From: an uncultured Holophagales bacterium
Lineage (GTDB): Bacteria; Acidobacteriota; Thermoanaerobaculia; Multivoradales; UBA5704
NCBI GenBank assembly: GCA_963842525.1
Contig: CAWJGT010000001.1
Span: 448,001-512,000, forward strand
DNA length: 64,000 bases
Direction: 5' to 3'
Shown here piece after piece: positions 19,901 through 38,464 of this stretch (positions are counted from its first letter, which is position 1; every line of letters starts with the position of its first letter). Both the position numbers and the translations under genes were made by a program. The notes below the pieces were generated by a model. That model saw only the letters and a program-made list of their open reading frames with translations. It did not search any database and was not told the DNA's origin.

Positions 19901-20440
19901 CAGCAGATAGTCGGAGCCGCCGGCCATCAGCCCCAGGGCCTGGACGCGGAAGTGCTCGATCAGCTCCTCGAAGGTGATGCCGCCGGTCACCGAGATGGCC
20001 TTGGTGGTCGGTCCCATGGAGCCGCAGACGAAGCGGATGCGCTCCGGCGTGTCGTGCCGGGCGCAGGCGGCGCGGGCGATGCGGGCCGAGGCGGCGTTGA
20101 GCTCGTAGGCCTCGTGCGCCAAATCGTATTCGGCGAGCACCAGCGGCGTGCCGCCGAACGAGTTGGTCTCGACGACGTCGCAGCCAGCGGAGAGGTATCC
20201 CTCGTGCACGCCGTCGACCACGTCGGGCCGCGTGGCGTTGAGGTTCTCATTGCACCCTTCGAGGTCCGGCCCGCCGAAGTCCTCGGCGGTCAGGTGGACG
20301 CCCTGGAGCGCAGTGCCGGTGGCGCCGTCGAGGACAAGGATGCGCTGCTCCAGCGCCGCGAGCAGGGCCGACGTCCGCGCCTCGAGGTCGGCGGGCCGAG
20401 AGGGAATGGGGGTGTCGAAGATCGAATCGCTCGCAGCCAT
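16940..20440 (-). CDS. metH: Cobalamin-dependent methionine synthase
   Basis: LDGATGT, GLNCATGP, GGCCGTT, GERTNVLGSRKF, ATVKGDVHDIGKNLV, RYSFGYPACPDL. Confidence 0.98.
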   Translation of the reverse strand: MAASDSIFDTPIPSRPADLEARTSALLAALEQRILVLDGATGTALQGVHLTAEDFGGPDLEGCNENLNATRPDVVDGVHEGYLSAGCDVVETNSFGGTPLVLAEYDLAHEAYELNAASARIARAACARHDTPERIRFVCGSMGPTTKAISVTGGITFEELIEHFRVQALGLMAGGSDYLLLETQQDTRNVKAGLIGLERAFAQAGWKIPVAVSVTIETTGTMLGGQDAEALAVSLLHADLLYVGLNCATGPDLMADHLRTLSEICRTRTACVPNAGLPDEDGRYHEGPDTFVKVFSRFLDAGWLNLVGGCCGTTAAHVTALAELVKGLPPRRIPHHHRSLVSGLEAVELTPDNRPLLVGERTNVLGSRKFKRLIADGNYEAAAEVGRAQVRAQAQVLDVCLQDPDRDETADVEAFLDRLIRMVKAPLMIDSTDAAVMERALTYCQGKAVLNSINLEDGRSRFEKVVPLAKRFGAALIVGLIDEKGMAVTVERKIEVARRSYQILVEEMGIAPEDIWWDALVFPCGTGDAAYLGSAAQTIEGVRSVKEIFPDTKTILGVSNVSFGLPNAGREVLNSVFLYHCTKAGLDAAIVNTEKLARYSEIPQEERDLAEALIYLPVGDIEAGNQAVEAFTAHFRGRASGIGAKPRADLPLDERLARAVVEGSKVGLEKDLDEALADPRWPAPLDIINGPLMAGMSEVGRLFNENQLIVAEVLQSAEVMKAAVSQLEPHMEKAGDAGRGRVILATVKGDVHDIGKNLVDIVLSNNGFQVVNLGIKVPSERLIQAVWEHKPDVIGLSGLLVKSAQQMVLTASDLAAAGIAIPLLVGGAALTRRFTHRKIAPAYGSLCTYARDAMHGLKLVERLLDPAVRSDLEQEVAGLIATDTVEAGTGAAEPSEGVAPAIHTVRRDLPVPQPPDVLRHTEELNLDEVWAYLNPQMVYGKHLGLKGSVRRLKEEGDPKLAKLEAVIEELKDLARDGAMTARAVWRFFPAQAQGDRLTLICPGTGRPITGWDFPRQSRNGGLCLTDFVLPEDHVALFVTTAGDGIRERVEEWKHKGEYLKSHAFAALALETAEAAAEYLHARLRADWGFPDPADMPFEDKLAARYRGKRYSFGYPACPDLAFQRGLFEALRPEEIGVELTEGDMMDPEASVSALVFHHPDARYFGV

Positions 20441-22918: not shown

Positions 22919-23869
22919 TCACACCTTCAGCTTCGCCATCAGCTTCTTGATCGCATTGGCGCTCTGCATGACGTAGAAGTGGAGGGAGGGGATGCCGTGG
23001 GCGAGGAGCTCTTCGCTCTGTTGCAAGGCCCATTCGACTCCGATGTCCACCACCTGCTCGGGCTTGGCCGCGAGGACCTCGTCGGCCAGCTCGGGGGGGA
23101 TCTCGACGTGGAAGTTGCTCGGGATCGTGGTGAGCTGCTTGACCCCGGTCAGGATCTTGAGCCCGGGGAGGATCGGCACCGTGATCCCGTGCTCCCGGCA
23201 GGCCTCGACGAACCGGAAGTAGTGGGCGTTGTTGAAGAACATCTGGGTGACGACGTAGTGCGCCCCCTCGTCGACCTTCTCCTTGACCCGGCGGACGTCG
23301 AGCGGCAGGTTCGGCGCCTCGAAGTGCTTCTCGGGATAGCCGCCGACGCCGATGCAGAAGGTCGAGGGCTCGGCGTCGAGCAGGTCCTGCTCCAGGTACT
23401 TCCCGCGGTTCATCGCCGCGATCTGGCGGACCAGGTCGCAGGCGTATGGGTTGGCGCTGCGGCCGTATTGCAACGGCTTCTGGAAGCCGCTGTCGTCCCC
23501 GCGCACGGCGAGGACGTTGTCGATCCCCAGGTACTTCAGCTCGATGAGGAAGTCCTCGGTCTCCTCGCGGGTGAAGCCGCGGCAGAGGATGTGGGGGACG
23601 GCGTCGATCTGGTACTTGTTCTGGAGCAGGGCGCAGACGCCCAGGGTGCCGGGTCGCTTGCGCTTGACCCGGCGCTGGAGGCCCTGCGGCGTCTCCTCGT
23701 ACATGACCTCGGCCGCGTGGCTGGTGATGTCGATGAACGGCGGCCGGTACTTGACCAGGTCGTCGATCAGGGCGAGGAGCTGCTGGACGTTGCCGCCGCG
23801 CAGGGGCGGGATGATCTCGAAGCTGATCAGCGGCCGGTCGGCGCGGGCCAGGTGCTCGGTGACTTTCAT
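22919..23869 (-). CDS. metF: Methylenetetrahydrofolate reductase
   Basis: ISFEIIPP, VPHILCRG, VLAVRGD, GGYPEKH, VTQMFF, LHFY; ATG at 23869. Confidence 0.95.
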   Translation of the reverse strand: MKVTEHLARADRPLISFEIIPPLRGGNVQQLLALIDDLVKYRPPFIDITSHAAEVMYEETPQGLQRRVKRKRPGTLGVCALLQNKYQIDAVPHILCRGFTREETEDFLIELKYLGIDNVLAVRGDDSGFQKPLQYGRSANPYACDLVRQIAAMNRGKYLEQDLLDAEPSTFCIGVGGYPEKHFEAPNLPLDVRRVKEKVDEGAHYVVTQMFFNNAHYFRFVEACREHGITVPILPGLKILTGVKQLTTIPSNFHVEIPPELADEVLAAKPEQVVDIGVEWALQQSEELLAHGIPSLHFYVMQSANAIKKLMAKLKV

Positions 23870-23983
23870 GTTCCTGGGGCCGGCAGCGTATCCCGGGGTC
23901 CCGCGGGGGTCAAGATGGAGGCAGGAGGGTTTTTCCGGTTCGTATAAAGTCCCGGCCATGAGTCTTTTTGCCACGGGCGCGCG

Positions 23984-25390
23984 ATGAGCCACTGGACCGG
24001 GGAGACCGCCTCCCGCCAGGCCCTGCGCGTCCTCGGCGACGGGCTCGCCGCGCTGACCGCCCTGGCCGGAGCGTTCCTCGTCCGCATCCACCTGCCGCTG
24101 CCCTTCACGGAAGGGCTCCTGCCGAGCGACCGGCTGGTCTTCCTGGCCCTCGAATGGCCGGCGGTGCTCGTGCTCCAGCTCGCCAGCCTCTATTTCTTCG
24201 GCTTCTACGACCCACCGCGTCCGCGCAGCCGGACCGAGGTCGCCCGTCGCCTGTCGGCGGCCGTGGTCGCCCAGGCGCTGGTCCTGATGGGTTATTACTT
24301 TCTCGGTAACCGCGGCTTCCCCCGCTCGGTGCTGCTGCTCTATCTCGCCCTCGACTTCCTGCTCGTCCTGGCTTGGCGGCTGGCGCTCGACCGCACGGAG
24401 CGCCGCCTCGAGCGGCGGGTGGCGATCGTGGGCAGCGGCCAGGCGGCGCGCGAGATCGCCCAGGCGCTACGCATCCACCCTTGGCACGGCCTGCGGGTGG
24501 TGGGCTACGTGCCCCTCCCGCACGAGGCGATGCCCTCTGCGGAAGGCACCGTGGATCCCGAGCTCGGGCCGTGCCTGGGCACGCCGGAGGACCTGCCCCG
24601 GCTGCTCGCCGACGGCGCCATCGAAGACATCGTCCTCGCCGACAGCGGCGATTCCTGGCAGACGCGGCTCATCGACAGCCTGGCGGGCACCCGGCCGGAC
24701 CACACCAACGTGCTCCTCCTGCCCGGCCCCTTCGAGAGCCTGATCGGGCGGATGCGCTATCGCTGGGTGCACGACCTGCCGCTGATCGAGGTCGTCCGCG
24801 AATCGGAGTGGCGGATCAACCGGCCGCTCAAGCGCCTGCTCGACCTGGCGGCCGGCTCGGTCCTCTTCCTTCTCGCCCTGCCGGTCCTCGCCGTGTGCGC
24901 CATGGCGGTCCGGACGACCTCTCCGGGGCCCGTCTTCTACCGCCAGAGGCGGGTCGGCCGCGGGCGGCGGCCCTTCACCCTGCTCAAGCTCCGCACCATG
25001 CGGGTCGACGCCGAGGCCGAAGCGGTGGAGGTGCTGGCCCAGCCGGGCGATCCGCGCCTGACGCCGATCGGGGCGTTCCTGCGCCGGTTCCGGCTGGACG
25101 AGATCCCGCAGCTCCTGAACGTCCTCCAGGGGGCGATGAGCCTGGTCGGCCCGCGGCCCGAGCGGCCGGGCTTCGTGCAGCGCTATCTCCAGGAGGTGCC
25201 CGGCTACGCCGAGCGCTTCTCCCTCGCCCCGGGGCTGACCGGCCTGGCGCAGGTCAACGGCGACTACAACTCCAGCCCGCAGAACAAGCTGCGCTACGAG
25301 CTCGCCTACATGGCCAACTGGAGCCTCTGGCTCGACCTGTCGATCCTGCTGCGCACGGTGAAGATCGTCCTGACGTCGCGCGGAGTCTGA
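23984..25390 (+). CDS. Polyprenyl-phosphate sugar phosphotransferase (WcaJ-like)
   Basis: Four N-terminal TMs, KRLLD, GPVFYRQRRVG, KLRTM, RLDEIPQL.NV..G.MSLVGPRPE, PGLTGLAQV. Confidence 0.95.
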   Translation: MSHWTGETASRQALRVLGDGLAALTALAGAFLVRIHLPLPFTEGLLPSDRLVFLALEWPAVLVLQLASLYFFGFYDPPRPRSRTEVARRLSAAVVAQALVLMGYYFLGNRGFPRSVLLLYLALDFLLVLAWRLALDRTERRLERRVAIVGSGQAAREIAQALRIHPWHGLRVVGYVPLPHEAMPSAEGTVDPELGPCLGTPEDLPRLLADGAIEDIVLADSGDSWQTRLIDSLAGTRPDHTNVLLLPGPFESLIGRMRYRWVHDLPLIEVVRESEWRINRPLKRLLDLAAGSVLFLLALPVLAVCAMAVRTTSPGPVFYRQRRVGRGRRPFTLLKLRTMRVDAEAEAVEVLAQPGDPRLTPIGAFLRRFRLDEIPQLLNVLQGAMSLVGPRPERPGFVQRYLQEVPGYAERFSLAPGLTGLAQVNGDYNSSPQNKLRYELAYMANWSLWLDLSILLRTVKIVLTSRGV

Positions 25391-25496
25391 ACCGGAGCGC
25401 GCTTTCCGGGGACCCACGAAAAGAAAGCTTGACTCGGTCAGAAGCCTGGCTTAGAATACGGATGGCTCTCCATCTATATTTTTGTTGAGGCTGCTT

Positions 25497-28400
25497 ATGT
25501 CCGGTCTATCTTTATCTTTTTGCCAGCGATCCTCTCTTTCCAGGTCAGCTCTCGGGCTCGTGTGCCTTCTGGGGCTTGCCGCGGGCGCCGGTACGCTGTT
25601 CGCCGCCTCGACCGGGACCAGCGCGCTCCACACCCCCCAGGGCAGCGGCGCCGGCACAGCCAACGGTGACTACATCACGGCCGATCCGGGCGGCCTCGAT
25701 ACCCTGTACCGCTACTTCATCGAGGTGCCTCCCGGGCTGTCCCGCCTGGTGGTGGAGATCTACGATCCGGACATCGGCCGCGGCGGCAACAACGACGAGA
25801 CCAACGGGCGCGACCGGGACAGGGACGGCTACGACACCCAGGTGGACTACGACCTCATCCGCCCCAACGGCAGCACCGCCGCCTCGCTCAACAACTGCAA
25901 CACCGGCAACAACTGCACCGACAACGGCTGGCATGCGATCCTCGACAGCACCTCGGCGGCCAACACCGCGGCCGGGCACTGGGAGCTGCGGATCGACATG
26001 AGCTCGAACGAGACCGACGGCAACGACATCAACGCCATCGGCATCCGGGCCCACGACAACAACTCCGGCTCGGGTGGGACGGAGCTGCGGGTCTATTACG
26101 ACTCGCACACCTCGGTCGGGGCCAACCCTCCCGGCAGCGGCACGCAGTCGCGCAGCTACGACCTCTATCCATACGTCACCTCGGGCTGCTCCGCGGGCAA
26201 GAACGATTTCGACTTCGACAGCAACCGGGGCAACACGGGCTCGGTGACGCTCGCGAGCCGGACGGGGAGCTTCACCCAGAGCTACGCCAGCACCTCCATG
26301 TCCGCCGACAACGTCTGGCGGCGGGACACCTTCAGCGGCTGGGCCTCCGACACCCAGGCGACCGATTATGGGATCTGGCACGCCGGTCTGACGATCAGCT
26401 CCTATCTCGTCGGCAGCACGCCGAACGGCAACTATGGGCACCTCTGGCTGTCCAACTTCCAGGCGGCGGCCAACCCGCCCGGGGCCAATCCGACGACGAA
26501 CGCCTTCCGGGTCTATCTGCCGACGGACGGCGGGGCGGCCCCGGTCAAGCCCTACGTCGAGCAGCTCCTGACCCACAAGAGCGGGCCCAACCCGCTGCCG
26601 GTGGGCCAGAGCGGGATCTATCAGGTCACCGTGCGGGTGGTGAACCCGACCGCGCAGTCGATCACCTTCTCGGCGTCGAACCTGGTGACGGCCAACGTCC
26701 CGGGCGGCGGCGCGGTCTACAACGGCAACGCCGCGGTCGGCCAGGGGTCGATCGTCAGCCAGCCGGCGGTCAACGGCACCGGCAACGTCACCTGGAACCC
26801 GGGCACGGTCACGGCCGGGACGACGACGATCCTCACCTACCAGGTGCGGGTGACCCCGGCCTCGGCGGGGCAGCGGATCCTGGTGACGGCGACCCCGGCC
26901 TCCGGCAACGGCACCCGCGCCCAGTACCGCGACGAGACCGACAACACGACCCAGGCGCGGGCCTTATACCTGTTCGGCCCGCTCTGCGAGCTGGCGGTCA
27001 CCCAGGGGGAGGTGCTGACCGAGGCGGTCGTCTCCTCCTTCCAGGCGGTCCGCGGCGAGCGCGGGGGCGTGCAGATCGAGTGGACGACGGCCTCGGAGGC
27101 GGGCACGGCGGGCTTCTACGTCTCGCGCTGGGACCCGCGGGCGCGGCGGTATCAGCGGGTGCACGACGGCCTGCTCGCCGGCCTGGTCCACGCTCCCCAG
27201 GGCGGGGCCTATCGCCTGCTCGACGAGGGTGCCTCGCCGCGCGAGCGGCAGGTCTACCTGCTGGAAGAGGTCGAGTCCGGAGGACGGAGGAAGGTCCATG
27301 GGCCGTTCCCCGTGACGGTGTCGTGGGAGCGGCGGGAGCGACCGGAGCGACCGGAACGAGCTGCGCTCGACGGGACCTTCGACCGGATCCCGCACCCGGC
27401 GGCAGGGAGGGCACGGGACCGGCAGGCGCTCGCGGCGGGCATTTCTCCGCCGCTGAAGCCGCCGCAGCCGGGGCAGGCCGCTCTCCACATCTCGGTGCGT
27501 GAGGCAGGCCTCCACTACCTCTCTTCCGGGACCCTCGCCGGGCTGCTCGGCGTCTCGCAGGCGAGCCTCGAGCAGCAGATCGCGAGCGGCATGCTGTTCC
27601 TCGCCCGCAGCGGCCAGGAGGTGGCCTGGCACCCGGACGAGGGAGGGGGTGGGCTCTTCTTCTACGGCGAGGCGCTGGACAGCCCCTATGGCGACACCGG
27701 GGTCTACAAGCTCCAGACCGGCGTCCCCGGCGTGCTCATGGAGGTCGCCGAGGTGGCCGATGCGCCGGCCGGCGCCGCGGGCGACACGTTCGCCGACGTC
27801 CGGCGCACCGAGCGGGACGCCTTCCCGGCCACGGTCCTGCCGCTCGATCCGGACTCGGACTACTGGTTCTGGGAGTTCCTGCAGGGCGGCGATCCGACCT
27901 TCGGGCAGAAGACCTTCGCCGTGGACGCGCCGGACGTGGACGCGGCCGGCGCCGCCTCGCTGGCCGTCGACCTCCAGGGAGCGACGGACAGCGGGACCGC
28001 GGACGAGCACCACGTCGCGGTCCGGCTCAACGGCACCCCCCTGGGCGAGGCGACCTGGCGCGGCCTCATGGCGCATCGGGCCGAGCTTCCCGGTCCCCCC
28101 CGGGCTGCTCCTCGCGAGCGGCAACCAGGTCGAAGTGACCGCGCAGGTGGGCGGCGGGGCTCCCTACAGCATCGTGTACGTGGAGGGCTTCGACCTCGCC
28201 TACCGGCGGCTCTTCCGGGCCGCGGGCGACGCCCTGGCCTTCGCGCCGGGCGGTGTTCCGAGCGGGGCCGGCGTCACCGTCTCCGGCTTCTCCGGAGAGG
28301 CGGTCCGGCTGCTCGACGTCAGCGATCCGCTGCTGCCGCGCTGGATCGAAGGGGCGGCGGTCGAGGCGGACCTCCCCGCGGCGCCCTCGGCATTCCGGCT

Positions 28401-29595
28401 GCGCTTCGCTCCGGACGCGGCGGGCCTCCATCTCGCCGCCGGCCCGGGAGCCGTCAAGGCGCCCGCGGCGGTGCGGCCCTGGAGCCCCCGCATCGTCCTC
28501 CTGAACCTGGGCCGGGCCGACTACCTGATCATCGCCCCGCCGGAGATGCAGGCGGCGGCGGAGCGGCTGGCAGACCTGCGGCGCTCTCAGGGGCTCTCGG
28601 CGCAGGTGATGGACCTGCAGCAGGTCTACGACGAATTCGGCAACGGCTTCCCCGGCCCCCAGGCGATCCGGAGCTTCCTGACCGAGGTCCGGGCGAGGTG
28701 GCGGAACCCTCCTCGGTACGTGGCGCTGGTGGGCGAGGGGACCCTCGACTACCGCAACCTCCTGGGGTACGGCGACAACGTGCTGCCGCCGCTGATGGTG
28801 CAGACCCCCCAGGGCCTCTTCCCTTCGGACAACCGCCTCGCCGACAGCGACGGCGACGGCATGCCCGAGACGGCCATCGGCCGCATCCCGGTGCTGACCG
28901 CGGCGGAGCTGGACGCCTACGTCGACAAGATCGAGGCCTACGAGGCGGCGGACCCGGCGGGCTGGGCCGGCAACGCCCTGCTCCTGGCCGACGCGCCGAG
29001 CGAGGGCACGGACTTCGGTGCGGACAGCCGGGCCCTGGCGGAGCAGATCCCGTCCACCTATACGACGGAGCAGGTCGACCTGACGACGACGACGCTCGCC
29101 GACGCCCGCACCCTCCTCTTCGACGCTCTCAACAGCGGCACCGCGCTGGTGAATTACCTCGGCCATGGCGGCCTCGACCGCCTGTCCGGCGGCGGGCTGC
29201 TCACCAGCGCCGACGTGCCGGACCTGAACAACGCCGACCGGCTGCCGGTCCTCACGGCCATGACCTGCACGGTCAACCGTTTCGCCGTCCCCGGCGTGCC
29301 CTCGCTTGGAGAGCTGCTGGTCAAGAAGCCGAACGGCGGCGCGGCGGCGGTGCTGGGCCCGTCCGGGTTGTCGATCCACCCGGACTCGCGCCTGCTGGCG
29401 GCGGGCTTCTATCGCCGGACCCCGGACCTCGCCGCGGCGCGCCTCGGGGACCTGGTCCTCGCCGCCTACCGGGAGGTCCGCGGCCTGGGCGGCGATCCCG
29501 TCCTGCTGGATATCTACAACCTGCTCGGGGACCCGGCGCTGCGCATCCCCCTGCCCCCGGTCGCGCCGGGCTCGGGAGGGACGAGCGGCGAGTAA
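25497..29595 (+). CDS. Large secreted C25 (gingipain-type) cysteine peptidase; +1 frameshift near 28081-28092
   Basis: Signal peptide, beta-rich domains and WTTASEAGTAGF in the first frame. The second frame has ADYLIIAP, VYDEF, LVGEGT.D, SDN..AD, IGRIP, NYLGHG (His), MTC (Cys), YNLLGDP. Removing one base gives AELPVPPGLL. Confidence 0.88.
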
Positions 29596-29608
29596 GGCCG
29601 CCGAGCCC

Positions 29609-29794
29609 ATGCCGGCGCACGAAAAGCAGGACGCCAGCGAGCCGCCCGATTACGGTGGCCGCGGCCGGCGGCCCTACGAGCCGCCGCGCATCCTCTGGCG
29701 GGAGCCGCTGGAGGCCATGGCGGCGGTTTGCGCGCCGTCGCCGCCGGCCAAGGGGAACCCGGGGTTCTGTCCCCAGGGACCGATTTCGTCGTAG
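29609..29794 (+). CDS. Putative RiPP precursor peptide (61 aa)
   Basis: ATG 13 nt after the C25 stop: MPAHEKQDASEPPDYGGRGRRPYEPPRILWREPLEAMAAVCAPSPPAKGNPGFCPQGPISS. Has a YxxP-type leader and a two-Cys core, and faces the rSAM/RRE operon. Confidence 0.8.
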   Translation: MPAHEKQDASEPPDYGGRGRRPYEPPRILWREPLEAMAAVCAPSPPAKGNPGFCPQGPISS

Positions 29795-29944
29795 GCCCCT
29801 CCCCCGACCCCTCCCCCGCGCGGCCGCCACACTCCCTCCCCGAGCGGGAGAGGGGCGCCTCCACCCGAGTTCTTCTGGTTTCCCCCTCTCCCGTTCGGGG
29901 CGGTGGGCGGGGGACGCACGGGAGAGGGGGCAGGGGGAGAGGGC
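29795..29944. repeat. Divergent CCCTCTCCC-type palindromic element
   Basis: gccctcccccgacccctcccccgcg...cgggagagggggcagggggagagggc between convergent stops. Confidence 0.7.
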
Positions 29945-31018
29945 TCACTCCACGATGGGCAACAGCGTCCGGCGCGCCGCCTGCGCCGCTTCCATCCGCA
30001 GCTCCGCCTCGGGATAGACGGCGAGCGGATCGCCCGTCCGCGTGACCGCCGAGCCCGGGCAGAAGCCCAGCAGCATCCCGTCGGAGCCGTAGGACGCGTC
30101 GAGCCTCCGCTTGACGTCGGCCGTCAGGGCGCGCACCTCGCCCAGGGCGGCGTTCCCGCTCCAGATCTCGCGGATCGACTGGTGGTGGAGGTTGCCCACC
30201 GGCCGGCGCCACTGCACGCAGGGGTAGACGTTGCCGTAGGGATCGATCGCCACGCCCGCCGAGCCGGCGCCGCAGTGCTTCTCGACCGGCACCGGCATGG
30301 TGCCATCGTCGCCTCCGCGGGCCAGGATGGGCACCGTGCCGGCCGCCCGGCGCGCCCGTTGCGTCTGCACCGCGAACAGCCGTGCGACCCCGTCGCGGGT
30401 CGGCGCGATCGAGAGCGGCTCGCGGTCGCCGTCGTCGCGCGGCGTCACCTCGGGGTCGATCTGCAGGAGGACGCCCAGGGAGTCGGCGAGGTCGAGCATC
30501 CCTTCGACCTCGTCCTGGTTCCACACGGTCAGGGTGCTGTTGAGCTTGATCCGCAGCCCCAGGCCCTGCGCCTCGCGCAGGTTGGCCAGGAGCCGGTCGA
30601 AGCTGCCCGGGACGCGGGTCTGCCGGTCGTGGGTGGCCGCGGTCGCGCCGTGCAGGCTGGACTCGACCAGGAAGGGATCGACCTCGTCGCGCAGGCGGCG
30701 CGCCATCTCGCCGCGCAGGGCGTGCCCGTTCGTCTTGACGCGCACGACGAACCCGAGCTCGCGCGCGCGGCCTCCCAGGCGCAGGAAGTCCGGGTGGGCG
30801 AGCGGCTCGCCGCCCGAGAGGGTGAGGTGGAGGACGCCGAGGTCCGCCAGCTCCTGGAAGAGGTCGAGGTACTGCCCGGTGCGCAACGGCTCGCCGCGCA
30901 GGCCCAGGTCGTTGTAGCAAAAGAAGCAGTCGAGGTTGCAGCGGTAGGTCAGCTCGACGAGGACCGAGAACAGGCGGTTCTCGCGCCAGGTCTTTTGCAG
31001 GACGTCCTCGAACCGCAT
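29945..31018 (-). CDS. Radical SAM peptide maturase with reduced SPASM/twitch domain
   Basis: ELTYRCNLDCFFCY, SGGEPL, KTNG, SLHGA...HD; C-terminal CGAG...IDPYGNVYPC...GNL and FCPG. Confidence 0.93.
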   Translation of the reverse strand: MRFEDVLQKTWRENRLFSVLVELTYRCNLDCFFCYNDLGLRGEPLRTGQYLDLFQELADLGVLHLTLSGGEPLAHPDFLRLGGRARELGFVVRVKTNGHALRGEMARRLRDEVDPFLVESSLHGATAATHDRQTRVPGSFDRLLANLREAQGLGLRIKLNSTLTVWNQDEVEGMLDLADSLGVLLQIDPEVTPRDDGDREPLSIAPTRDGVARLFAVQTQRARRAAGTVPILARGGDDGTMPVPVEKHCGAGSAGVAIDPYGNVYPCVQWRRPVGNLHHQSIREIWSGNAALGEVRALTADVKRRLDASYGSDGMLLGFCPGSAVTRTGDPLAVYPEAELRMEAAQAARRTLLPIVE

Positions 31019-31022
31019 CGAA

Positions 31023-31301
31023 TCACGCTACCAGCATGCCCTCGGCCGCCAGCTCGGCGGCGAAGGCGATCACGTCCCGCTCCAGGCAGTCGGGGTCGGC
31101 GTCATACTCGCCGGCCAGCACCTCCAGCCAGCCGCGCACGGAGCTGCTGCCATCCGCCAGCTCCAGGAGACGGGCCGCCAGGTCGTTGAAGACCAGGACC
31201 TCCGCCGCGCTCTGGCGGACGACCACGGCCTCGCCGTCGATGCGGCGGAAGCGCAGATCGGGAGCACGTCTCAGGATGCTGCCTACTTCGACGGGAACCA
31301 T
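31023..31301 (-). CDS. PqqD family RiPP recognition element
   Basis: RRIDGEAVVV, FNDLAARLLELADG, L..EYD.D...ERDV..F..EL..EGML; ATG at 31301. Confidence 0.9.
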   Translation of the reverse strand: MVPVEVGSILRRAPDLRFRRIDGEAVVVRQSAAEVLVFNDLAARLLELADGSSSVRGWLEVLAGEYDADPDCLERDVIAFAAELAAEGMLVA

Positions 31302-32218
31302 TTGTCGTGCAGTATAGACCAGAAGCCTCCGCGCAGAGAGACCTCCAGGGCCCAGGCGGGCGGAGCCTCTCCTGCCGGAAGGAGCCGGAGCAGGCCGGCG
31401 AGCAGGGCCTCGCGCCGGTGCGGATCGGCGTTGACGAACGGCGAGCAGGAGAGGAGCAGCGCCGTGGCCTCGGCGCGGCCGAGCGGGCGGAGCGCGTCGT
31501 GGGGGCTCTTTTCGAGGCGGAAGAGCGCGCCGAGAGGCAGCGGGGGAGCCGGCTCCCCCGCATCCCCCAGGTCGCCGGTGAACGGCAGCGGCTCCACCAC
31601 CGGCCGGCCTGCCGCCAGCCGCAGGGCGTTCAAGTCGTCGGAGAGCACCGTGGCGCCGCGCTCCAGCGCCATCCGGGAGAGGGTAGTCTTGCCCGCGCCC
31701 GAGCGGCCGAGGAAGAGGAAGCCGAGGCCATGGACTGCAATTCCGGCGGCGTGCAGGACCGCGCCGCCCTGCTCGTGCAGGCGGTAGGCGACGAGGACGC
31801 GGAAGAAGTTCTCGAACATCCCTGCAAAGGCTTCGCCTTCGTCCGCCGTCCACAGCGCGCCGGCGAGGTCGGGCCGCCAGTCGAGCCTCCCCACCAGGCG
31901 GATGCCCGCCAGACGCACCGACGCGGGCGTGAAGTCGAAATCGAGCCCGTACTCCCAGCCGCGCACGTCGACCTCGCGGAACTCTTCCTTGGAGATGCGG
32001 AAGAGGACGGTCTCGACGGCCTTCTCGGGCCAGGGCGGGGACAGGAGCCAGCCGCCGAAGCGGTGCCGCACCGCCTCCTCCTGGAGGGCGCTCAGCCCGG
32101 CGCAGCGGTAGGGGCCGCCGGGCAGGGCGAGGGCCACCTCGCGGTCGCCCCAGGGCTCGCCGCTCCGCCGGGCCGGGAACAGGTCGGGGTTGACCAGGAA
32201 GGCGGCGCCGAAGCTCAT
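31283..32218 (-). CDS. HprK-related P-loop kinase (ScmC-like)
   Basis: LHAAGI, FLFLGRSGAGKTT (Walker A), LSDD, LPFTGD. Confidence 0.8.
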   Translation of the reverse strand: MSFGAAFLVNPDLFPARRSGEPWGDREVALALPGGPYRCAGLSALQEEAVRHRFGGWLLSPPWPEKAVETVLFRISKEEFREVDVRGWEYGLDFDFTPASVRLAGIRLVGRLDWRPDLAGALWTADEGEAFAGMFENFFRVLVAYRLHEQGGAVLHAAGIAVHGLGFLFLGRSGAGKTTLSRMALERGATVLSDDLNALRLAAGRPVVEPLPFTGDLGDAGEPAPPLPLGALFRLEKSPHDALRPLGRAEATALLLSCSPFVNADPHRREALLAGLLRLLPAGEAPPAWALEVSLRGGFWSILHDKWFPSK

Positions 32219-32231
32219 CCGGTCCCAGGGG

Positions 32232-32636
32232 TCAGTGGGCAGTCAGGCGGCGGAGGGCGTGCCGAAGGTACTCCAGGGCGGCCCGCAGGCGCAGGACCGG
32301 GCCGGCGCCGGGTCCGGCCACCCGGCCGAGCACCCCGTCGAGCGGCACGGGGAAGTCGCGGCACGCGCAGCCGTCTCCCCGCGTGACACAGGCGAGCCGG
32401 CCTGCGTGCAGCCGGTAGCCGAGGAACCGGTGCACCCGCAGCCGTCCGTCGGAGGACCGGAAGACGAGGACGTCGCCCGGCCAGTAGAGCCGGGCCGGCG
32501 CCACCTCGACGCGGTCGCCGTCCGCCAGGCGGGGGGCCATGCAGCCGCCCCGGACCGTCACCTCGACCGGCCGCTCGCGCGCCATCGCGCGGAGCGTGGC
32601 GAAGACCTCGGGCGAGTCCGGGATTCCGGAGCGCAT
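32232..32636 (-). CDS. S24/S26-family peptidase with Cys at the catalytic Ser position
   Basis: VRGGCMAPRL.DGD.V.V, GDVLVF, VHR, TRGD. Confidence 0.8.
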   Translation of the reverse strand: MRSGIPDSPEVFATLRAMARERPVEVTVRGGCMAPRLADGDRVEVAPARLYWPGDVLVFRSSDGRLRVHRFLGYRLHAGRLACVTRGDGCACRDFPVPLDGVLGRVAGPGAGPVLRLRAALEYLRHALRRLTAH

Positions 32637-32674
32637 GGATGCATTGTAAACGGCGGGCCGGATCTCGCGGACGC

Positions 32675-33130
32675 TCACGGCGCGCGGAATTCTTCGGGTA
32701 TGGAAGGGGCGAGGCGCGGGTCGAGCCGCAGGGCGAGCCCGTAATTGTGGACGGCTTCCTCGGTCCGGCCCTGGCGGGCGTAGGCATGGCCGAGGCCGAG
32801 GTAGATCTCCGGCCGGGGCTCGATCGCCTCGGCCTCCCGGTAGGCTTCGGCGGCAGCCTCGTAGTTGCGGAACAGGAGCTGGAGCTCGCCGCGCGCCATC
32901 GGGATCTTGACCTCCACCGGATCGAGCTCCTGCGCACCGCGGAGGGCCTGGAGCCCGCCCGCCAGCAGCGCGAGGGGAGCCCGGCCCCGGCTGGACGCCG
33001 CGACGGCTAGCTGCTCTACCCCCCGGAGCTGGCGGCTCGCCGCCATGGCGGACCGCCAGCGGACGGTCTGTGCGGCGAGGGCCGCCGCCAGGACGATCAG
33101 GGCGATCCAGGCCAGGGTCCGGCCCTTCAT
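32675..33130 (-). CDS. Membrane-anchored TPR protein
   Basis: N-terminal TM; AQELDP, YREAEAIEP, LGLGHAY, ALRLDP. Confidence 0.82.
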   Translation of the reverse strand: MKGRTLAWIALIVLAAALAAQTVRWRSAMAASRQLRGVEQLAVAASSRGRAPLALLAGGLQALRGAQELDPVEVKIPMARGELQLLFRNYEAAAEAYREAEAIEPRPEIYLGLGHAYARQGRTEEAVHNYGLALRLDPRLAPSIPEEFRAP

Positions 33131-34524
33131 GCCTCCTCCTCCTCGCGGTCGCCCCGGCGGAAGACCCAGCTCAGGAAGAGCAGCGCGGGGAACGCGATCA
33201 GCGCGACCCGGAAGGGAAAATGCACCAGGCAGAGCACGGCGAGAGCCGCCGTGCCGGACCATGCGAGCGCGCTGTCATTGCGGCGGCGGTCCGGGGCGCG
33301 CGCTCCGCGGCGCAGCGCGACGAGGAGCGTCCAGAGCCCCCAGCCCAGGGCGGCGAGGCCGGGGATCCCCCACTCCGCGGCCACCTCCAGCGCCTCGTTG
33401 TGGGCGTTGGCGAACACGGGCTGCACCTGGCGGGTGAAGAACGGGGCCCCGCGGTCGAGCAGGGCCAGCTTGGCGGGCACGAACTCGGGGAGGTAGGCGC
33501 CGTGGCCGACGCCGGTCCAGGGATGCTCGCGGAACATCCAGACCGCCGCCCGCCAGCCGTCGAGCCGTCCGGTGAGCACCGCGTCCCAGCTCCCCTCCCG
33601 GGCCTGCTGCACCTTGACGGCGATGCGGCTGCGCAGCGGCGCCACGGCGAGCACCAGGACGAGCGCCAGGGCGGCGCCGCTGCCGAAGACCGCGACGGCC
33701 CAACGGCGTGGCAGGATCAGGGCCCAGAGGAGGGCGCTCCCCAGGGCGAGGGCGGCCAGCGCCGCCAGGGTCTGGGTGAGGGCGATGGCATAGACGCAGA
33801 GCGCCAGCGCCACGACAGTCCCCCAACGCGCCTTGCCCATCGCGCCGCGGGCCAGAGACCATTGAGCGATCAGCGCCGGGAGCACCAGGTAGGCCGCCAG
33901 GTCGCCCGGGTTGCCCGCCAGCGACGTGACGGACAGCCGCGGGTCATAGGCGACCCCTACCAGCTCCAGCGGTTGGAACAGCCGGTGGAACTGGAGGATG
34001 CCCAGGAGCCCCAGGGCCGCGGCCGGCCAGAGCAGGACGCGCAGCAGGCGCTCCAGCCGGTCCTCGTCCAGCGCCAGGCTCCAACCCACCAGTGCGACAG
34101 CGCCGATCCAGAGGTCGGCCAGCGCTTCGCGCACGTGGAGCGGGTGGTCGCTGGTCCACCACCCCAGCGAGGCGACCAGCAGCGCCGGCACGACCGCCCG
34201 CACGGCGCCGTGGCGCCAGACGTCGGCCAGGCGGACCTCCGCTGCCTTGCGCAGGCGCCAGCTCAGGAGGAGGACCGAGGCCAGCGCCAGCCATTCGCTG
34301 ACCATCAGCTTGGGGAGGCGGAACGACTCGTCGGCGGTCGGCGCCAGCAGGAACGGCGGCACCAGGATCGTCAGCCAGACCGCCAGCACGCCCAGCCGCT
34401 CGAGCCGCGACGTCCGGAGCTCGGGGACCGGCCGCGGGGCCGCGCCCGTCCGGTGTCCTCGGGAGGGTTTCACGGCAGTCTGTGCGGTGGCGGCGCGCCG
34501 GGCGGGCTTGCGAGACGGCTTCAC
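33127..34524 (-). CDS. O-antigen ligase / O-oligosaccharyltransferase (Wzy_C) family protein
   Basis: Multi-TM; SLAGNPG, R...W..A..MF..HPWTGVG.G, NAHNEALEVAAEWGIPG; start uncertain (34524 or 34557). Confidence 0.9.
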   Translation of the reverse strand: MKPSRKPARRAATAQTAVKPSRGHRTGAAPRPVPELRTSRLERLGVLAVWLTILVPPFLLAPTADESFRLPKLMVSEWLALASVLLLSWRLRKAAEVRLADVWRHGAVRAVVPALLVASLGWWTSDHPLHVREALADLWIGAVALVGWSLALDEDRLERLLRVLLWPAAALGLLGILQFHRLFQPLELVGVAYDPRLSVTSLAGNPGDLAAYLVLPALIAQWSLARGAMGKARWGTVVALALCVYAIALTQTLAALAALALGSALLWALILPRRWAVAVFGSGAALALVLVLAVAPLRSRIAVKVQQAREGSWDAVLTGRLDGWRAAVWMFREHPWTGVGHGAYLPEFVPAKLALLDRGAPFFTRQVQPVFANAHNEALEVAAEWGIPGLAALGWGLWTLLVALRRGARAPDRRRNDSALAWSGTAALAVLCLVHFPFRVALIAFPALLFLSWVFRRGDREEEEA

Positions 34525-34601
34525 AGCGGGGGGAGTATATCCCGGCCCCCTCGGCAACCGCGGTTGGGCGTGGTCGAACGAGGGGGCCGGGCGGGAGGGC
34601 G

Positions 34602-35177
34602 TTACGGCTGCGGCGGGCGCCGATATCCGTCCCGGTCGTGATCGTCGTCCCGGTCGCGGTCGTAGCGGCCGTCATACCGTCCATTCCGGCCGCCGCGGTA
34701 GCGGCCTCCCCGGCGCGAGTAGTCGTCATAGCGGCCGTAATAGCGGGTCAGCTCGGAGAGGATGCCTCCGATCTGGTCGAGGCCGCGCTCGACGTAGCTC
34801 CTGCGCCCGGTGTAGCGCAGCGACTCCTCGGCCGCGTAAAAGGCGTCGAGCAGGCGCTGGAAGTCGCGTTCGGTGCTGCGGGGGTCACGGCCGTAACCAT
34901 CCACCTGACCGCGAAAGCGGTCCGCCTGCCGCTCGAGCTCGTGCAGGCGGATGGCCACCCGCTCCTCGTTGCGGTCCGGCCGCCGGTTGTTACGTTCGAA
35001 CTCCCGGTGGACATAGGTCGTGGTGTGCTCGAGCTGAGAGGCGAGCTCGGCCACGCGCCTCATGTCCGTGCGGCCCGGATAGCGTCCATACCGGTCATCC
35101 TGGCGGTCGGCGCTCCAGGCGGCCGGGGGCAGGGTGAAAGCGAGAAGTGCGGAGGTCAACAAAATCGTACGTCTCAT
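34602..35177 (-). CDS. Secreted Arg/Asp/Tyr-rich hypothetical protein
   Basis: AAGGAG RBS; signal peptide MRRTILLTSALLAFTLPPAAWSA. Confidence 0.8.
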   Translation of the reverse strand: MRRTILLTSALLAFTLPPAAWSADRQDDRYGRYPGRTDMRRVAELASQLEHTTTYVHREFERNNRRPDRNEERVAIRLHELERQADRFRGQVDGYGRDPRSTERDFQRLLDAFYAAEESLRYTGRRSYVERGLDQIGGILSELTRYYGRYDDYSRRGGRYRGGRNGRYDGRYDRDRDDDHDRDGYRRPPQP

Positions 35178-35700
35178 GGGTTTTCTCCTTGGTTGAAGCC
35201 TCGGAGCCTCTCCTAAGGCAAAGCGGATGCCATATCGCAGGATGCTTGAAAACAAAAGAGTTACCGGGATGGAGCGTGCGCGCGGGGGTGGCTGTTGTCT
35301 CCTGGAAAGGACGGTTTGACCTCCGCGCGCATCTGGACTGCTAGGCTCCCGCGCCCGGCAGCCGTAACAGACCTGGGAAGGGCATACGCGCTAACTTTGC
35401 TCTGGGTGTGGAGGGAGCCGCCGACCGCTGAAGCGGGCGGGCGCGATCCTCGACAGCCGCTTCCCGAAACCATCCTCCTGACCGTCTGAAATGCTGGGGA
35501 GACCCGTCCTCTGAGCTGGGGGAGCGGGCTCTGAGTTGGGGGAGGCCCGCCCCAGACAGACACGGGGCGCCGGCTCTGAGTTGGGGGTGAGCCCCCCTGC
35601 CTGGGGGAGCGTTCCCCCAGGCCAGATGCGCTCCCCCCCAACCCGGCCGTGTGCTGTCCCTGCGGTGTGGCCTTTCGACTCAGGTAGAATTCCTTCATCC

Positions 35701-38464
35701 ATGCCTGGAGCCAAGACCTTCGACGTCTTTCTCAGCCACAACAGCAAGGACAAGACCGCCGTCCTCGAGCTGGCGGAGTCACTGCGGCGCCGGAAGCTGA
35801 AGGTCTGGTTGGACGTGTGGGAGCTGCGGCCTGGGCAGCTCTGGCAGAAGGCCCTGGAAGCGGCCATCGCGAGCATCCGTTCGGCCGCCATCCTCGTTGG
35901 GAAGGACGGTCTGGGTCCCTGGGAAGACCAGGAGATGGATGCATTTCTGCGGAGGTTCGTGAAACGCACTGCCGACAGCGTCATTCCCGTTCTGCTGCCC
36001 GGCGCCCCGGAAAGGGTCGAGCTGCCACTGTTCCTTGAAGGCTTCACCTGGGTCGACCTCAGAGAGGGCCTGATTCCCGCGAAGCTGGACACATTGGTCT
36101 GGGGGATCACCGGCCGCAAACCAAAGCCGCTCCGCGTTGGTCTTCCTCCCCCCTCTCCCGGTGGACGGGGGGGCGATGGGAGAGGGGGGGCAGGGGGGTG
36201 AGGATCCCGACCTCGCCGCCTACCGGGCCTGGGCACTGGACCGCTATCGCGGCCTGAGCCTGATCGGCCTCGGGGCGGCCGACGTCCGGATGCGTTTCGA
36301 GGTGGTCTACGTACCGCTGCGGATCGCCCGCCGGCCGGGCCGCTTCGAGATGGAAGTCGAGACCGGAAAGCGGCCCGGCCGCGGCCTGGGAGCGGCGGGC
36401 TCCGACGAGATCGAGATCGAAGAGATCTTCGCGACCGGCGTGCCGCACTCGCTGGTTCTTGGCCACCCGGGAGCCGGCAAGACGACGTCGCTCCTGAAGC
36501 TCCTCCACCTCTGTCTCGCCGAGGGTCCGAAGCCTCGGAGCTTGGCAGAGGGCACCGTGCCGGTTCTCCTCCGGCTGCGGCACCTCACCGCCGCGGACCT
36601 TGACCGCCCGCTGGCCGATTTCGCCGAGCGCGAGCTGGCCGAGACTTCCGGCGGCGCTCTGCCGGCCGGACTCGGCACCCGCCTATGGGACCGGGGGCGC
36701 CTGCTCCTGCTGCTCGATGGGTTGGACGAGATCGCGGACGAGGCGCTACGCACCCGCGTCTGCGGCTTTCTGGACTTCGCGCTCACCGGCGCCGAGCGGC
36801 GGCACATTCGTGCCATTCTCTCTTGCCGCTTCGCAGGCTATGGGGGGAGGTCCGGTTCGGCGAGCATCCAGGAGTACCTGACGGCGCTCCACATCGCCAG
36901 CCAGGGGGCCGAGTTGCTCGGCGAGCCGTGCGCCCGCTGCGGCGACGAGTGGTGGCACGAAGTCCTGTTGCTGGTGGTGGGGCTGCCAGGCCGGCGGCTC
37001 TTCGGTCCCTTGATGGAGCGGCTGCTCGCCGTGACGGACCTCCCGCAGCGGGAAGACCTGCTGCGCGCCTGCCTCGACGAGGCCGCGGAGGTGGACCTCG
37101 AACCTTTGCTGTCCCGGCTCGTTCCGGAAGAGCCACCGCAGCGTCTGGCCGTGGTATTGCGTCTCCTGCGCGGCCGCTCTGATCCGCGGCTCTTGGAACG
37201 GGTCACACCGCTCATCGAAAGCACGGACGCCGGGGTGGCTGCACTCGCGCGACAGATCGCCGCCGAGCTGAGCCGGCCGGCGGCGGTGGCCAGGCCGGTC
37301 TGCGACCTCTTCGTCGTCCACCACCCGGCCGATGGGGAGAGCGCCTTCGAGTTGGTGCGGGTCCTGCGCCGGGCGGGGCGGCACGTCCTCGTGGCCGGGG
37401 AGGACCCGCTCTCGGAAAACATCGCGGAAGGAACCACTGCTGTGGCCGTGTTGGCCGGCCCGAGCGGTCGTCCACCCTGGGAAGTGAAGGACCTCTACCG
37501 GACCCTTCGCCTCTTCACCCGGCGCCGGAGGCCCCTCGTGCCGGTGCGGCTGCCGGGTGCCGGAACGTTCCCTGCGCCGCCGGGTGACCTCCCGGCTCTG
37601 GACTGGGTCGATCTCCGCCAGGGGTTGGCGCGAGCGGCCGAGGCGTTGGAGCTCGCCCTGGAAAAGAAGCCGGCCATCTTGACGGCACCACCGGCCGGCC
37701 AGCCTTCGGCCGAGCCCGGCCGCACCTGGATCGAGCCGGTCACCGGTATTCGTTTCCTCTGGATTCCGGGTGGGCGGTTCCAGATGGGAGGAAACCGGTT
37801 CCCCGACGAACAGCCTGTTCACTGGGTTCGGGTCTCCCCCTTCTGGCTGGGGGAGACGCCGGTGACCAACCAGCAGTATGCGCTGTTTCTCGATCAGACC
37901 CGCTATCGAGAGCCCGATTTCTGGCGGGACCGGCGCTTCTCCGCCCCGGAGCAGCCGGTGGTCGGCGTGAGCTGGGAGGACGCAGAGGTTTTTTGCGCGT
38001 GGCTCGCGCGCGTTTCTGGCAAGGCCGTGGTCCTGCCCAGCGAGGCGCAGTGGGAATTCGCAGCACGGGGGCCGGACGCACGGGAGTATCCCTGGGGCAA
38101 CGCCGCGCCGGGTGAGACACTGGCCTGTTTCGATCTCGACTTTGAGAAAGGTCAGCCAGCGCCGGTCGGCTCATACCCGGAGGGCCGGGGGCCTTTTGGC
38201 ACGCTGGACCAGGCAGGCAACGTCTGGGAGTGGTGCCTGGACGTTTGGGACGAGAAGGCATATCAGAAGCGCGCAAAGGGAAGGGAGCCCTTGGATCCAG
38301 TGGTCAGTGGCGAAGGGGAAGGGCGGGTGCTTCGGGGCGGCGGCTGTTTCAGCCCCGCGGAGAATCTGCGGGCCGCTTACCGCGACGGGTCCCGCGCCAG
38401 GTTCCGGGACGACGATGTCGGCTTCCGCGTCGCCGCCGCGCCCGCGAGCACCTTGAAGCCTTGA
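35701..38464 (+). CDS. TIR-NACHT-TIR-FGE(C-type lectin) protein, DGR target; frameshift at ~36195 and apparent internal deletion at ~36860
   Basis: TIR (FDVFLSHNSKDK..WLD..PWEDQEM), Walker A GHPGAGKTT, Walker B LLLLDGLDE, degenerate TIR (DLFVVHH..PLVPVRLP..WVDLR), FGE (F.MG, PVTNQQY, PVVGVSW, LPSEAQWE.AAR, GNVWEW, RGG, GFRV). Confidence 0.85.
36148..36203. repeat. Half palindromic element inside the TIR-NACHT linker
   Basis: cccccctctcccggtggacggggggcgatgggagagggggggcaggggggtgagg. Confidence 0.8.
38330..38449 (+). other. DGR variable region + IMH, copy 1
   Basis: Differs from 38801-38920(-) at 18/120 nt, 17 of them at codon positions 1-2; no synonymous changes. Confidence 0.85.

Follow-up and report, generated by a model that had tools for sequence, protein, structure and literature searches.

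The locus described here lies in a stretch of 64,000 nucleotides from the genome of an uncultured Holophagales bacterium of the phylum Acidobacteriota (assembly GCA_963842525.1, contig CAWJGT010000001.1, positions 448,001 to 512,000), hereafter called the window; all coordinates are those of the window. A plus-strand open reading frame (ORF) for 61 amino acids (29609-29794) converges there on a minus-strand run of genes for a signal-peptidase-like peptidase, an HprK-like kinase, a PqqD-family protein and a radical S-adenosylmethionine (SAM) enzyme. With good confidence we read these genes as a maturation system of the kind that yields peptides made on ribosomes and modified after translation (RiPPs), in which the product of the small ORF would be the precursor and which is tied to a C25 peptidase gene and to surface polysaccharide genes.

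The predicted leader peptidase, a soluble protein of SEC11/SipW type (S26B-like) with 148 amino acids, is encoded at 32232-32678. After a gap of 13 nt follows the gene of a P-loop kinase with HprK/PEPCK fold (31283-32218, 311 amino acids; PEPCK, phosphoenolpyruvate carboxykinase), identified by HprK-family matches and the fold of its model, which overlaps by 19 nt with the gene of a discrete PqqD-family RiPP recognition element (RRE; 31023-31301, 92 amino acids, PqqD 7.2e-11, above the cut-off). Another 4 nt separate the latter from the gene of the radical SAM enzyme (29945-31018, 357 amino acids, Radical_SAM 3.6e-19), which carries a partial, twitch-like SPASM domain (7.9e-9). An earlier note on this DNA had described this order as S24/S26 peptidase, HprK-like kinase, PqqD and radical SAM, and family searches bore it out. 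Only the end of the peptidase gene had to be moved: the position given, 32636, is an internal ATG and a possible alternative start, while the frame reaches 32678. Two more genes stand upstream in the same run, beyond the set recognised before, namely a TPR-repeat protein with an N-terminal hydrophobic segment (32675-33262, minus strand, matched by TPR families, probable start at the ATG at 33130), whose gene end overlaps the start of the peptidase gene by 4 nt, and, at the head of the run, a polytopic membrane protein of the O-antigen ligase-like Wzy_C family (33127-34557, minus strand, 1.4e-19). On the plus strand, the ATG of the precursor gene lies 13 nt past the stop codon of a gene for a large secreted cysteine peptidase of the C25 (gingipain/PorU) type (25482-29595, Peptidase_C25, PF01364, 1.6e-81). 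Upstream of it on the same strand, a polyprenyl-phosphate sugar transferase with the domains Bac_transf and CoA_binding_3 is encoded at 23984-25390. No component of the locus scored high enough to pass a curated threshold among the specific NCBIfam families.

The convergent spacer of 150 nt between the precursor and the radical SAM gene (29795-29944) is rich in G+C and was predicted to fold into a single long hairpin of -115.9 kcal/mol (z -5.6), a value reached by none of 200 shuffled sequences. The hairpin may act as a bidirectional terminator; a promoter and terminator scan of 29400-30100 found nothing. It is not conserved, and the two genes are only 10-60 nt apart in most relatives.

The precursor gene and its constant neighbours

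With 73 % G+C the region abounds in long spurious frames (59 ORFs of at least 40 amino acids in 9 kb), which by itself would speak for a chance open frame. The small ORF had also been listed solely as the tail of a longer frame, as the earlier note had pointed out; this frame was located at 29306-29794 (162 amino acids, TTG start). When the HprK-like protein was used as query, 23 of 41 related genomes, counting that of the window itself, proved to encode a strong relative (E<1e-40), and the stretches around these genes provided 20 related loci. The small ORF was matched by tblastn in 16 of them. A motif scan of the four misses found no copy beside the radical SAM gene; in three of them the ORF lies 4-13 kb away on the same contig, and in the fourth the contig ends 217 bp past the radical SAM gene. 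In these loci and in the wider locus sets the small ORF is conserved beside homologous clusters, and the refutation named in the earlier note, its absence there, did not occur. Relatives of the ORF were obtained from 86 genomes in a pattern scan with one genome per species. A profile search (E<=1e-3) matched 1261 protein clusters, all annotated as hypothetical protein, without a Pfam domain and mostly 50-70 amino acids long. In an even sample of Acidobacteriota, 50 of 401 genomes, about one in eight, had a match at E<=1e-5; this tally counts an unpublished genome (G193) that was used nowhere else. The median ratio of nonsynonymous to synonymous substitution rates (dN/dS) was 0.196 for 2437 pairs among 72 orthologues, and the differences at the first, second and third codon positions numbered 1758, 1558 and 2985, hence third positions dominate. 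Most orthologues present an ATG 56-64 codons before the stop codon with a purine-rich run ahead of it. Comparison of the coding sequences thereby confirmed a real gene under purifying selection. Against the dN/dS value, the amino acid conservation across phyla and the 1261 gene-called clusters, the reading as a chance frame was rejected, and we assign it practically no probability. In the ESM Atlas, the named clusters retrieved with the precursor as query scored 0.81 or less (DUF5972 and Subterisin, to be taken as a lead only), and the remaining hits were the family's own unnamed Acidobacteriota clusters.

The assignment as a precursor gene is based on this conservation, on the dN/dS value and on linkage. 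From the pattern scan 80 loci were kept, and in 55 of them the sequence extended 4.5 kb or further to either side of the ORF. Among these 55 well-flanked loci, the HprK-like kinase was encoded in 53, the radical SAM enzyme and PqqD in 52 each, the peptidase in 50, the TPR protein in 39, Wzy_C in 37 and the C25 peptidase in 30. Where a radical SAM match was present (72 loci), no more than 600 bp separated the gene from that of the precursor in 61 loci, and the two genes were convergent in 68 and co-directional in four. Four loci without a radical SAM gene had genomes that were searched, and in three of them the orthologue was found on another contig. The hosts belong to the Acidobacteriota, the Myxococcota and the Gammaproteobacteria. 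In the other phyla, the gene order varies and the gene set is constant: a metagenome-assembled genome (MAG) labelled as a delta proteobacterium (L113) has C25, precursor, peptidase, kinase, PqqD and radical SAM genes in this order on one strand, an Ectothiorhodospiraceae locus (L118) has C25, precursor, kinase, PqqD and radical SAM, and two Sandaracinaceae loci (L099 and L111) have kinase, radical SAM and precursor, in L099 with PqqD between kinase and radical SAM.

A second, shorter form of the precursor with about 38-45 amino acids was present in 17 distant Acidobacteriota loci; its leader and its C...K...C...G-P-x-x-S end agree with those of the longer form. Searches with hidden Markov models detected radical SAM genes in 15 of these loci, PqqD in 14, C25 in 13, the kinase in eight and the peptidase in four. 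In four of five short-form genomes that were rechecked, three of which lacked a kinase gene near the precursor, kinase genes were found 8-12 kb upstream on the same strand. Judged by these locus counts, the precursor is accompanied most regularly by the radical SAM enzyme and the RRE, and more loosely by the C25 peptidase and the kinase. In the distant loci L129-L140 the short precursor has C-A-K directly after the cleavage motif and is co-directional between the radical SAM and C25 genes. One of these loci (L136) presents PqqD, radical SAM, precursor and C25 genes on one strand, with an alpha/beta-hydrolase gene upstream on the same strand; in its neighbourhood there are also genes for an extracytoplasmic function (ECF) sigma factor and of sulfatase/phosphodiesterase type. 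Two short precursors (L130, L131) are orphans, with no enzyme genes detectable in the flanks examined, and L131 is cut by a contig end.

Motifs of the precursor and the probable maturation enzymes

The peptide sequence was as described before, with a YxxP motif, two Cys, three Ser and a richness in Pro (six residues). Residue counts were made on 82 peptides and excluded the R-E-P-L-E stretch, which the search pattern had prescribed. Pro26, Ala38, Cys41, Lys48 and the C-terminal Ser61 were present in all 82 peptides, Cys54 and Gly57 in 81 each. Position 23 was Tyr in 66 and Trp in 16, thus the YxxP motif of the earlier note is found family-wide as [Y/W]xxP. The C-terminal Ser occurred also in all 120 peptides of a second set. 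The Cys spacing had to be revised: C-x12-C, suggested as a family feature, is replaced by C-x7-C in distant relatives, with 1 to 10 residues between Cys41 and Lys48, while the distances from Lys48 to Cys54 and from Cys54 to Ser61 are nearly fixed. The leader, residues 1-38, bears Y23-x-x-P26-x-I-L and ends with E-A-M-A38. The E-A-x-A pattern fits the rule of small residues at positions -3 and -1 for signal peptidases. From Y23 to C41, the peptide aligns position by position with the motif YxxPxVLxHQxIxFETxxS of the linear polyphosphorylated peptides (LPP) of Bacillota. According to the article text on this family, these leaders are cut after T(-1), and [Y/W]xxP is the motif bound by the RREs of lasso peptides and LPP (PMC13381572). 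In that register, T(-1) of LPP corresponds to the invariant Ala38, and the phosphorylated S3 of LPP to the invariant Cys41. This register, together with an agreement in the spacing of the peptidase residues, places the predicted cleavage after Ala38 and would release a core of 23 amino acids, A39-S61.

The PqqD-family protein would bind Y23-x-x-P26-x-I-L and present the peptide to the three enzymes. In comparisons with its family profile, the lasso B1 proteins TbiB1 (1.2e-9) and TfuB1 (1.4e-8) ranked ahead of PqqD, PbaB1 (9x90, 5.3e-5) and LppB (9x8z, 2.6e-4). A prediction of the complex from RRE and precursor alignments scored 0.50 versus 0.68 for the control and was counted neither for nor against binding.

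The radical SAM enzyme has the CX3CX2C motif (C27, C31, C34) and the C-terminal Cys-rich domain of radical SAM-SPASM maturases, visible as a Radical_SAM match and a partial SPASM match that covers only positions 1-52 of the 67 in the profile. Beyond the SAM cluster, only three more Cys are invariant (C249, C267, C320). All six Cys were conserved in 66 of 66 near relatives and, among 16 distant ones, in 15-16. A complete SPASM domain contains seven Cys. Three extra Cys and a partial domain fit one auxiliary cluster of the twitch-like type with a free coordination site rather than two clusters, an arrangement that also occurs in twitch-type enzymes and in those that form thioethers. Its nearest relatives modify peptides or have a PqqD partner (PqqE, MftC, StsB, SkfB); the nearest with solved structures, among five PDB matches, are PqqE (6c8v, 8.9e-19), BlsE, SkfB (6efn) and CteB (5wgg). 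At E<=1e-10 the enzyme is present in a single copy in the genome. With a predicted single auxiliary cluster held by three Cys it would most likely cross-link the core through Cys41 and Cys54, in a linkage of thioether type, and Lys48 would come to lie inside the loop. We consider such a thioether cross-link about as likely as not.

The similarity to PqqE, NirJ and MftC and the presence of a discrete PqqD partner are also what would be expected if the peptide were the precursor of a small redox cofactor, similar to pyrroloquinoline quinone (PQQ) or mycofactocin. The scores are, however, far under the cut-offs (PqqE 96.6 versus 381), the RRE is closer to lasso B1 proteins than to PqqD, and the conserved neighbours include no conserved oxidoreductase or tailoring set. 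The precursors of PQQ and mycofactocin carry Glu/Tyr or Val-Tyr ends, whereas the conserved core residues of this family are Cys, Lys, Cys, Gly-Pro and Ser. We consider a cofactor precursor very improbable. In comparison with PqqE/PqqD and MftC/MftB, the shared feature is a pair of proteins, a radical SAM enzyme and a separate peptide binder of the PqqD family; the three Cys beyond the SAM cluster, the different precursor and the presence of a leader peptidase and a kinase set the locus apart.

The HprK-family matches of the kinase were weak and confined to the P-loop region. Its structure model (mean predicted local distance difference test, pLDDT, 90.9) had the best fold matches with ATP-dependent PEPCK (E 8e-8), and PEPCK and HPr kinase belong to the same superfamily. 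The motifs G-R-S-G-A-G-K-T-T and L-S-D-D were recognised, with S173, G174, G176, K177, T179, S193 and D194 invariant. For both kinase and peptidase, single-sequence searches of the PDB brought no useful match, whereas profiles and folds did. The kinase would phosphorylate a serine, most likely Ser61, besides which no hydroxyl residue is conserved in the core. A different use of the phosphate would be dehydration, with phospho-Ser61 converted to dehydroalanine and Cys54 added to it in a C-terminal lanthionine-like ring. Phosphorylation followed by elimination is the route of some lanthipeptide synthetases and offers a precedent, and the spacing of seven in C54-x2-G-P-x2-S61 is fixed in nearly all relatives. 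A lyase or cyclase domain was however not present among the conserved genes, and the phosphates stay on the peptide in both characterised HprK-type RiPP systems, as far as the article texts describe them (PMC8498205, PMC13381572), so that we regard such a ring as very improbable. According to a review (PMC8498205), linear lasso precursors are phosphorylated on their C-terminal Ser by the HprK homologues of these clusters, a precedent that fits the invariant Ser61. By this analogy, a phosphorylation of Ser61 by the kinase has about equal chances of being right and wrong.

The peptidase was matched by archaeal-type signal peptidase I (1e-7, below the cut-off), and in its model (pLDDT 84) the first fold matches were SEC11C and SEC11A, then SpsB and LexA. 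Two properties go beyond the earlier note: the fold is of the SEC11/SipW type and not of the LexA type, and the nucleophile position is occupied by Cys46; H83, D102 and D108 are invariant. SEC11A is the catalytic subunit of the human signal peptidase complex. In the profile alignment with it, G-x-C-M-x-P of the peptidase is paired with S-G-S-M-E-P, H-R with H-R and T-x-G-D...D with T-K-G-D...D. No membrane segment was seen on inspection by eye. Among 57 orthologues, 51 had Cys and six had Ser at the nucleophile position. In the 150 best representatives from a search of 1.84 billion cluster representatives there were 113 with Cys, 27 with Ser, one with Thr and nine without the strict motif; H-R-x-x-G was conserved in 147. 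These counts suggest that, in a signal-peptidase fold, nature has exchanged the Ser nucleophile for Cys; both residues still occur among close relatives. No report of a Cys-type S26 peptidase was found among the papers listed by title and abstract in a search of the open literature. With Cys46, His83 and Asp108 as the putative catalytic residues, the enzyme would cut after E-A-M-A38 and release the core; this leader removal by a Cys-type peptidase is suggested by the alignment register and the fold.

Relation to characterised peptide systems

The closest characterised system is the LPP family of Bacillota with the proteins LppA, LppB, LppK and LppS (Popov et al., Nat Commun 2026, PMC13381572). 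The article describes LppB as a discrete RRE, LppK as an HprK-like kinase that polyphosphorylates core Ser3, and LppS as an archaeal-type signal-peptidase-like leader peptidase with the essential residues S29, H68 and D93. The LPP clusters, considered there as restricted to Bacillota, contain a nucleotidyltransferase and an MsbA-like exporter and are set in capsule loci. The suggestion of the earlier note that a cognate leader peptidase and a kinase act on the peptide has in these results an experimental precedent. Our comparison is with the article text; the smaller sequence similarity network clusters of that study may hold relatives. On this basis both systems share a soluble archaeal/ER-type signal-peptidase-like peptidase, an RRE that is a separate protein, a kinase resembling HprK, a YxxPx[V/I]L leader in register up to the cleavage site and a setting among polysaccharide genes. 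The kinase resembles the LPP type by its family matches and its PEPCK/HprK-type fold, a comparison at the level of family and fold and not with the LppK sequence itself. The distances in C46-H83-D108 are 37 and 25 residues, versus 39 and 25 in S29-H68-D93 of LppS. Differences are evident as well. A radical SAM enzyme is part of the locus described here, whereas neither "radical" nor "Acidobacteri" occurs in the article text; the peptidase nucleophile is Cys versus Ser in LppS; position 3 of the core is Cys versus the phosphorylated Ser of LPP. The window has a linked C25 peptidase but no nucleotidyltransferase or ABC exporter, and the PF14907 matches of the genome are on other contigs. The hosts are three other phyla, and the RRE matches TbiB1 and TfuB1 better than LppB.

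Lasso peptides phosphorylated in the manner of paeninodin, as presented in the review (PMC8498205), have in common with the locus an HprK-homologous kinase, a B1-type RRE, a [Y/W]xxP leader and a C-terminal Ser of the precursor. A lasso peptide was nevertheless rejected as the product: no cyclase or B2 peptidase is encoded in the window (none of the seven Asn_synthase and not the one Transglut_core3 match of the genome fall there), and the core in the window has no acidic residue able to form a macrolactam. On the same contig outside the window, Transglut_core3 (15819-16166), a weak HprK-like match (16975-17169) and Asn_synthase (26335-27363) were observed in the region G000:C1:15819-27363, which by its matches may be a separate kinase-bearing lasso peptide cluster of the same genome.

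In the sactipeptide and ranthipeptide maturases StsB, SkfB and CteB, radical SAM enzymes likewise act on Cys-containing precursors with the aid of an RRE. The score with StsB was 94.8 bits versus a cut-off of 625, and their RRE is an N-terminal domain, whereas it is a separate protein here.

The earlier note had recognised a hidden precursor and the logic of a RiPP system, which stands, and had likened the gene set to the SynChlorMet cassettes (ScmC/D/E/F; TIGR04249-04251), which does not. An HprK-like protein, a PqqD protein and radical SAM/SPASM enzymes are shared, ScmC is the best NCBIfam match of the kinase (1.5e-6), and ScmE and ScmF are among the matches of the radical SAM enzyme. But the scores are far under the curated cut-offs (ScmC, TIGR04249, 27.8 versus 125; ScmE 64.7 and ScmF 71.2 versus 400), there is one radical SAM gene and not two, and no Scm-specific PqqD model was among the four matches of the RRE. 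Membership was refuted at these cut-offs and is scarcely tenable. A full-text literature search found no paper mentioning a SynChlorMet cassette.

Several observations weigh against a RiPP system with the three modifying activities proposed here. A MAG of the Gammaproteobacteria (L117:8001-11232) has two divergent precursor genes flanking a nitroreductase-family gene, together with kinase and peptidase genes and without a radical SAM gene; with the query used, no radical SAM orthologue was found in this genome, the completeness of which is unknown. Precursors are thus kept without the enzyme, and the conserved Cys need not be its targets. One peptide (L144) ends in Thr and lacks the C-terminal Ser, and two of the 82 (L120, L143) shift the last Cys or the C-terminal spacing. 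The radical SAM enzyme is about as near to the cofactor-type enzymes PqqE, MftC and NirJ as to thioether synthases, so that the cross-link may be of another type. Since the RRE resembles lasso B1 proteins more closely than LppB, the kinship with LPP may reflect a sharing of modules and not descent. An exporter was not found in the window, where none of the nine ABC_membrane matches of the genome fall. A search for RNA sequencing runs from which expression could be read brought up none. A description of the system was not found in the open literature, a search that did not cover subscription journals and supplements.

The C25 peptidase and a possible role at the cell surface

The C25 protein has a signal-peptide-like N-terminus, as seen by eye, and the catalytic residues H355 and C389, which were invariant in 43 sequences. 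It shares the C25 domain with gingipains and PorU. PorU was the best specific model, with 189.9 bits versus a cut-off of 420, and the N-terminal region of about 870 amino acids had no family match; in the ESM Atlas this region retrieved its own family only (0.83). Near 28045-28100 the gene switches its reading frame within a stretch that has seven C in a row, a typical site of homopolymer assembly errors, while six relatives have one ORF of 1360-1400 amino acids; the change is either such an error or a real frameshift. The precursor gene is probably co-transcribed with the C25 gene. C25 and precursor genes occur together in Acidobacteriota, Sandaracinaceae (L111), the delta proteobacterium MAG (L113), Gammaproteobacteria (L117, L120) and Ectothiorhodospiraceae (L118). 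Polysaccharide genes recur as well: Bac_transf, Wzy_C, Wzz in L113 and Polysacc_synt in L118. The ORF cluster of Bac_transf, of which one representative was tested, was present in 33 of the 80 related loci. The recurrence of C25 and polysaccharide genes suggests that the product acts at the cell surface, maybe as a partner of the C25 peptidase. A RiPP-type cluster linked to C25 was not found among the papers listed in searches of the open literature, subscription journals and supplements not covered.

Another ORF cluster, assigned by one tested representative to the nucleotidyltransferase family PF14907, was found in 23 of the 80 loci (e.g., L087:2865-3962, minus strand). In a subset of Thermoanaerobaculia loci it is placed between the C25 and the precursor gene, and several loci have a second PqqD-like match upstream. 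The combination of PF14907 and a second PqqD in those loci recalls the LppN/paeninodin tailoring set.

The biosynthesis proposed for the RiPP system is compatible with two roles of its product, and it is solely in this role that a further explanation differs: the peptide could be the dedicated partner of the secreted C25 peptidase rather than a free natural product. In one form, the Cys-bridged loop would present the invariant Lys as a substrate-like inhibitor or chaperone of a putatively Lys/Arg-directed gingipain-type enzyme; in the other, a PorU-like transpeptidase would cleave the peptide and attach it to a surface glycan. The position of the precursor gene 13 nt after the C25 gene argues for a partnership, as do the co-occurrence across several phyla and in 13 of the 17 distant loci, the single-strand order PqqD, radical SAM, precursor and C25 in L136, and the recurring polysaccharide genes. 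Lys48 lies between the two Cys in all 82 peptides, and the invariant catalytic residues and the PorU sortase model, albeit below its cut-off, argue in the same direction. On the other hand, the linkage is looser than that of the radical SAM gene, with a C25 gene within 8 kb in only 30 of the 55 well-flanked loci, and the window revealed no route by which the peptide would be exported. A gene neighbourhood, moreover, is by itself no proof of interaction. A dedicated C25 partner is a possibility we take seriously, yet doubt. Still less likely, in our opinion, is a more far-reaching proposal, in which precursor, RRE, a radical SAM enzyme with one auxiliary cluster and C25 in polysaccharide loci would be the ancient core, the Cys-Lys-Cys loop peptide would be made for C25, either as a Lys-presenting macrocyclic inhibitor or chaperone or to be coupled to a surface glycan by a PorU-like transpeptidase, and the leader peptidase would represent, among natural proteins of the S24/S26 (signal peptidase/LexA) fold, the first branch with a Cys nucleophile.

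Further genes were observed in the surroundings of the locus. Upstream of Wzy_C, an ORF for 217 amino acids (34602-35255, minus strand) has a signal-peptide-like start, a C-terminal half rich in Arg, Asp and Tyr and no family match. It is followed on the plus strand by a gene for a TIR-domain protein (35536-36201) and one for a protein of 775 amino acids (36137-38464) that has NACHT, a C-terminal FGE-sulfatase domain and, below the cut-off of 28 bits, a weak match to TIR (24.3 bits, E 4.6e-5); by their domains, the two look like a STAND-type defence or signalling pair. Upstream of the locus, the minus strand codes for a B12-dependent methionine synthase (16940-20440) and a methylenetetrahydrofolate reductase (22919-24091). 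A methionine synthase fragment is also near the cluster in one related locus (L058).

The RiPP system probably encoded here, with the product of 29609-29794 as the precursor, would be functionally tied to the secreted C25 peptidase and the cell-surface polysaccharide genes. What is new is the combination of an LPP/lasso-type module of recognition, kinase and peptidase with a radical SAM enzyme, a signal-peptidase-like protease that has Cys at the nucleophile position, and a C25 peptidase encoded in linkage. The module of peptidase, RRE and kinase, in print only since 2026 and for Bacillota, now extends to three other phyla, where it is joined to radical SAM chemistry. The 1261 clusters and the occurrence in about one-eighth of the sampled Acidobacteriota genomes mark a large untouched family of ribosomal peptides, with its precursor, recognition motif, predicted site of cleavage and four candidate residues for modification now defined. 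That the precursor is repeatedly paired with a C25 gene and with polysaccharide genes hints at a function on the cell surface and, if the peptide is indeed made for the C25 peptidase, it would be a RiPP for the assembly of the cell envelope rather than for antibiosis.

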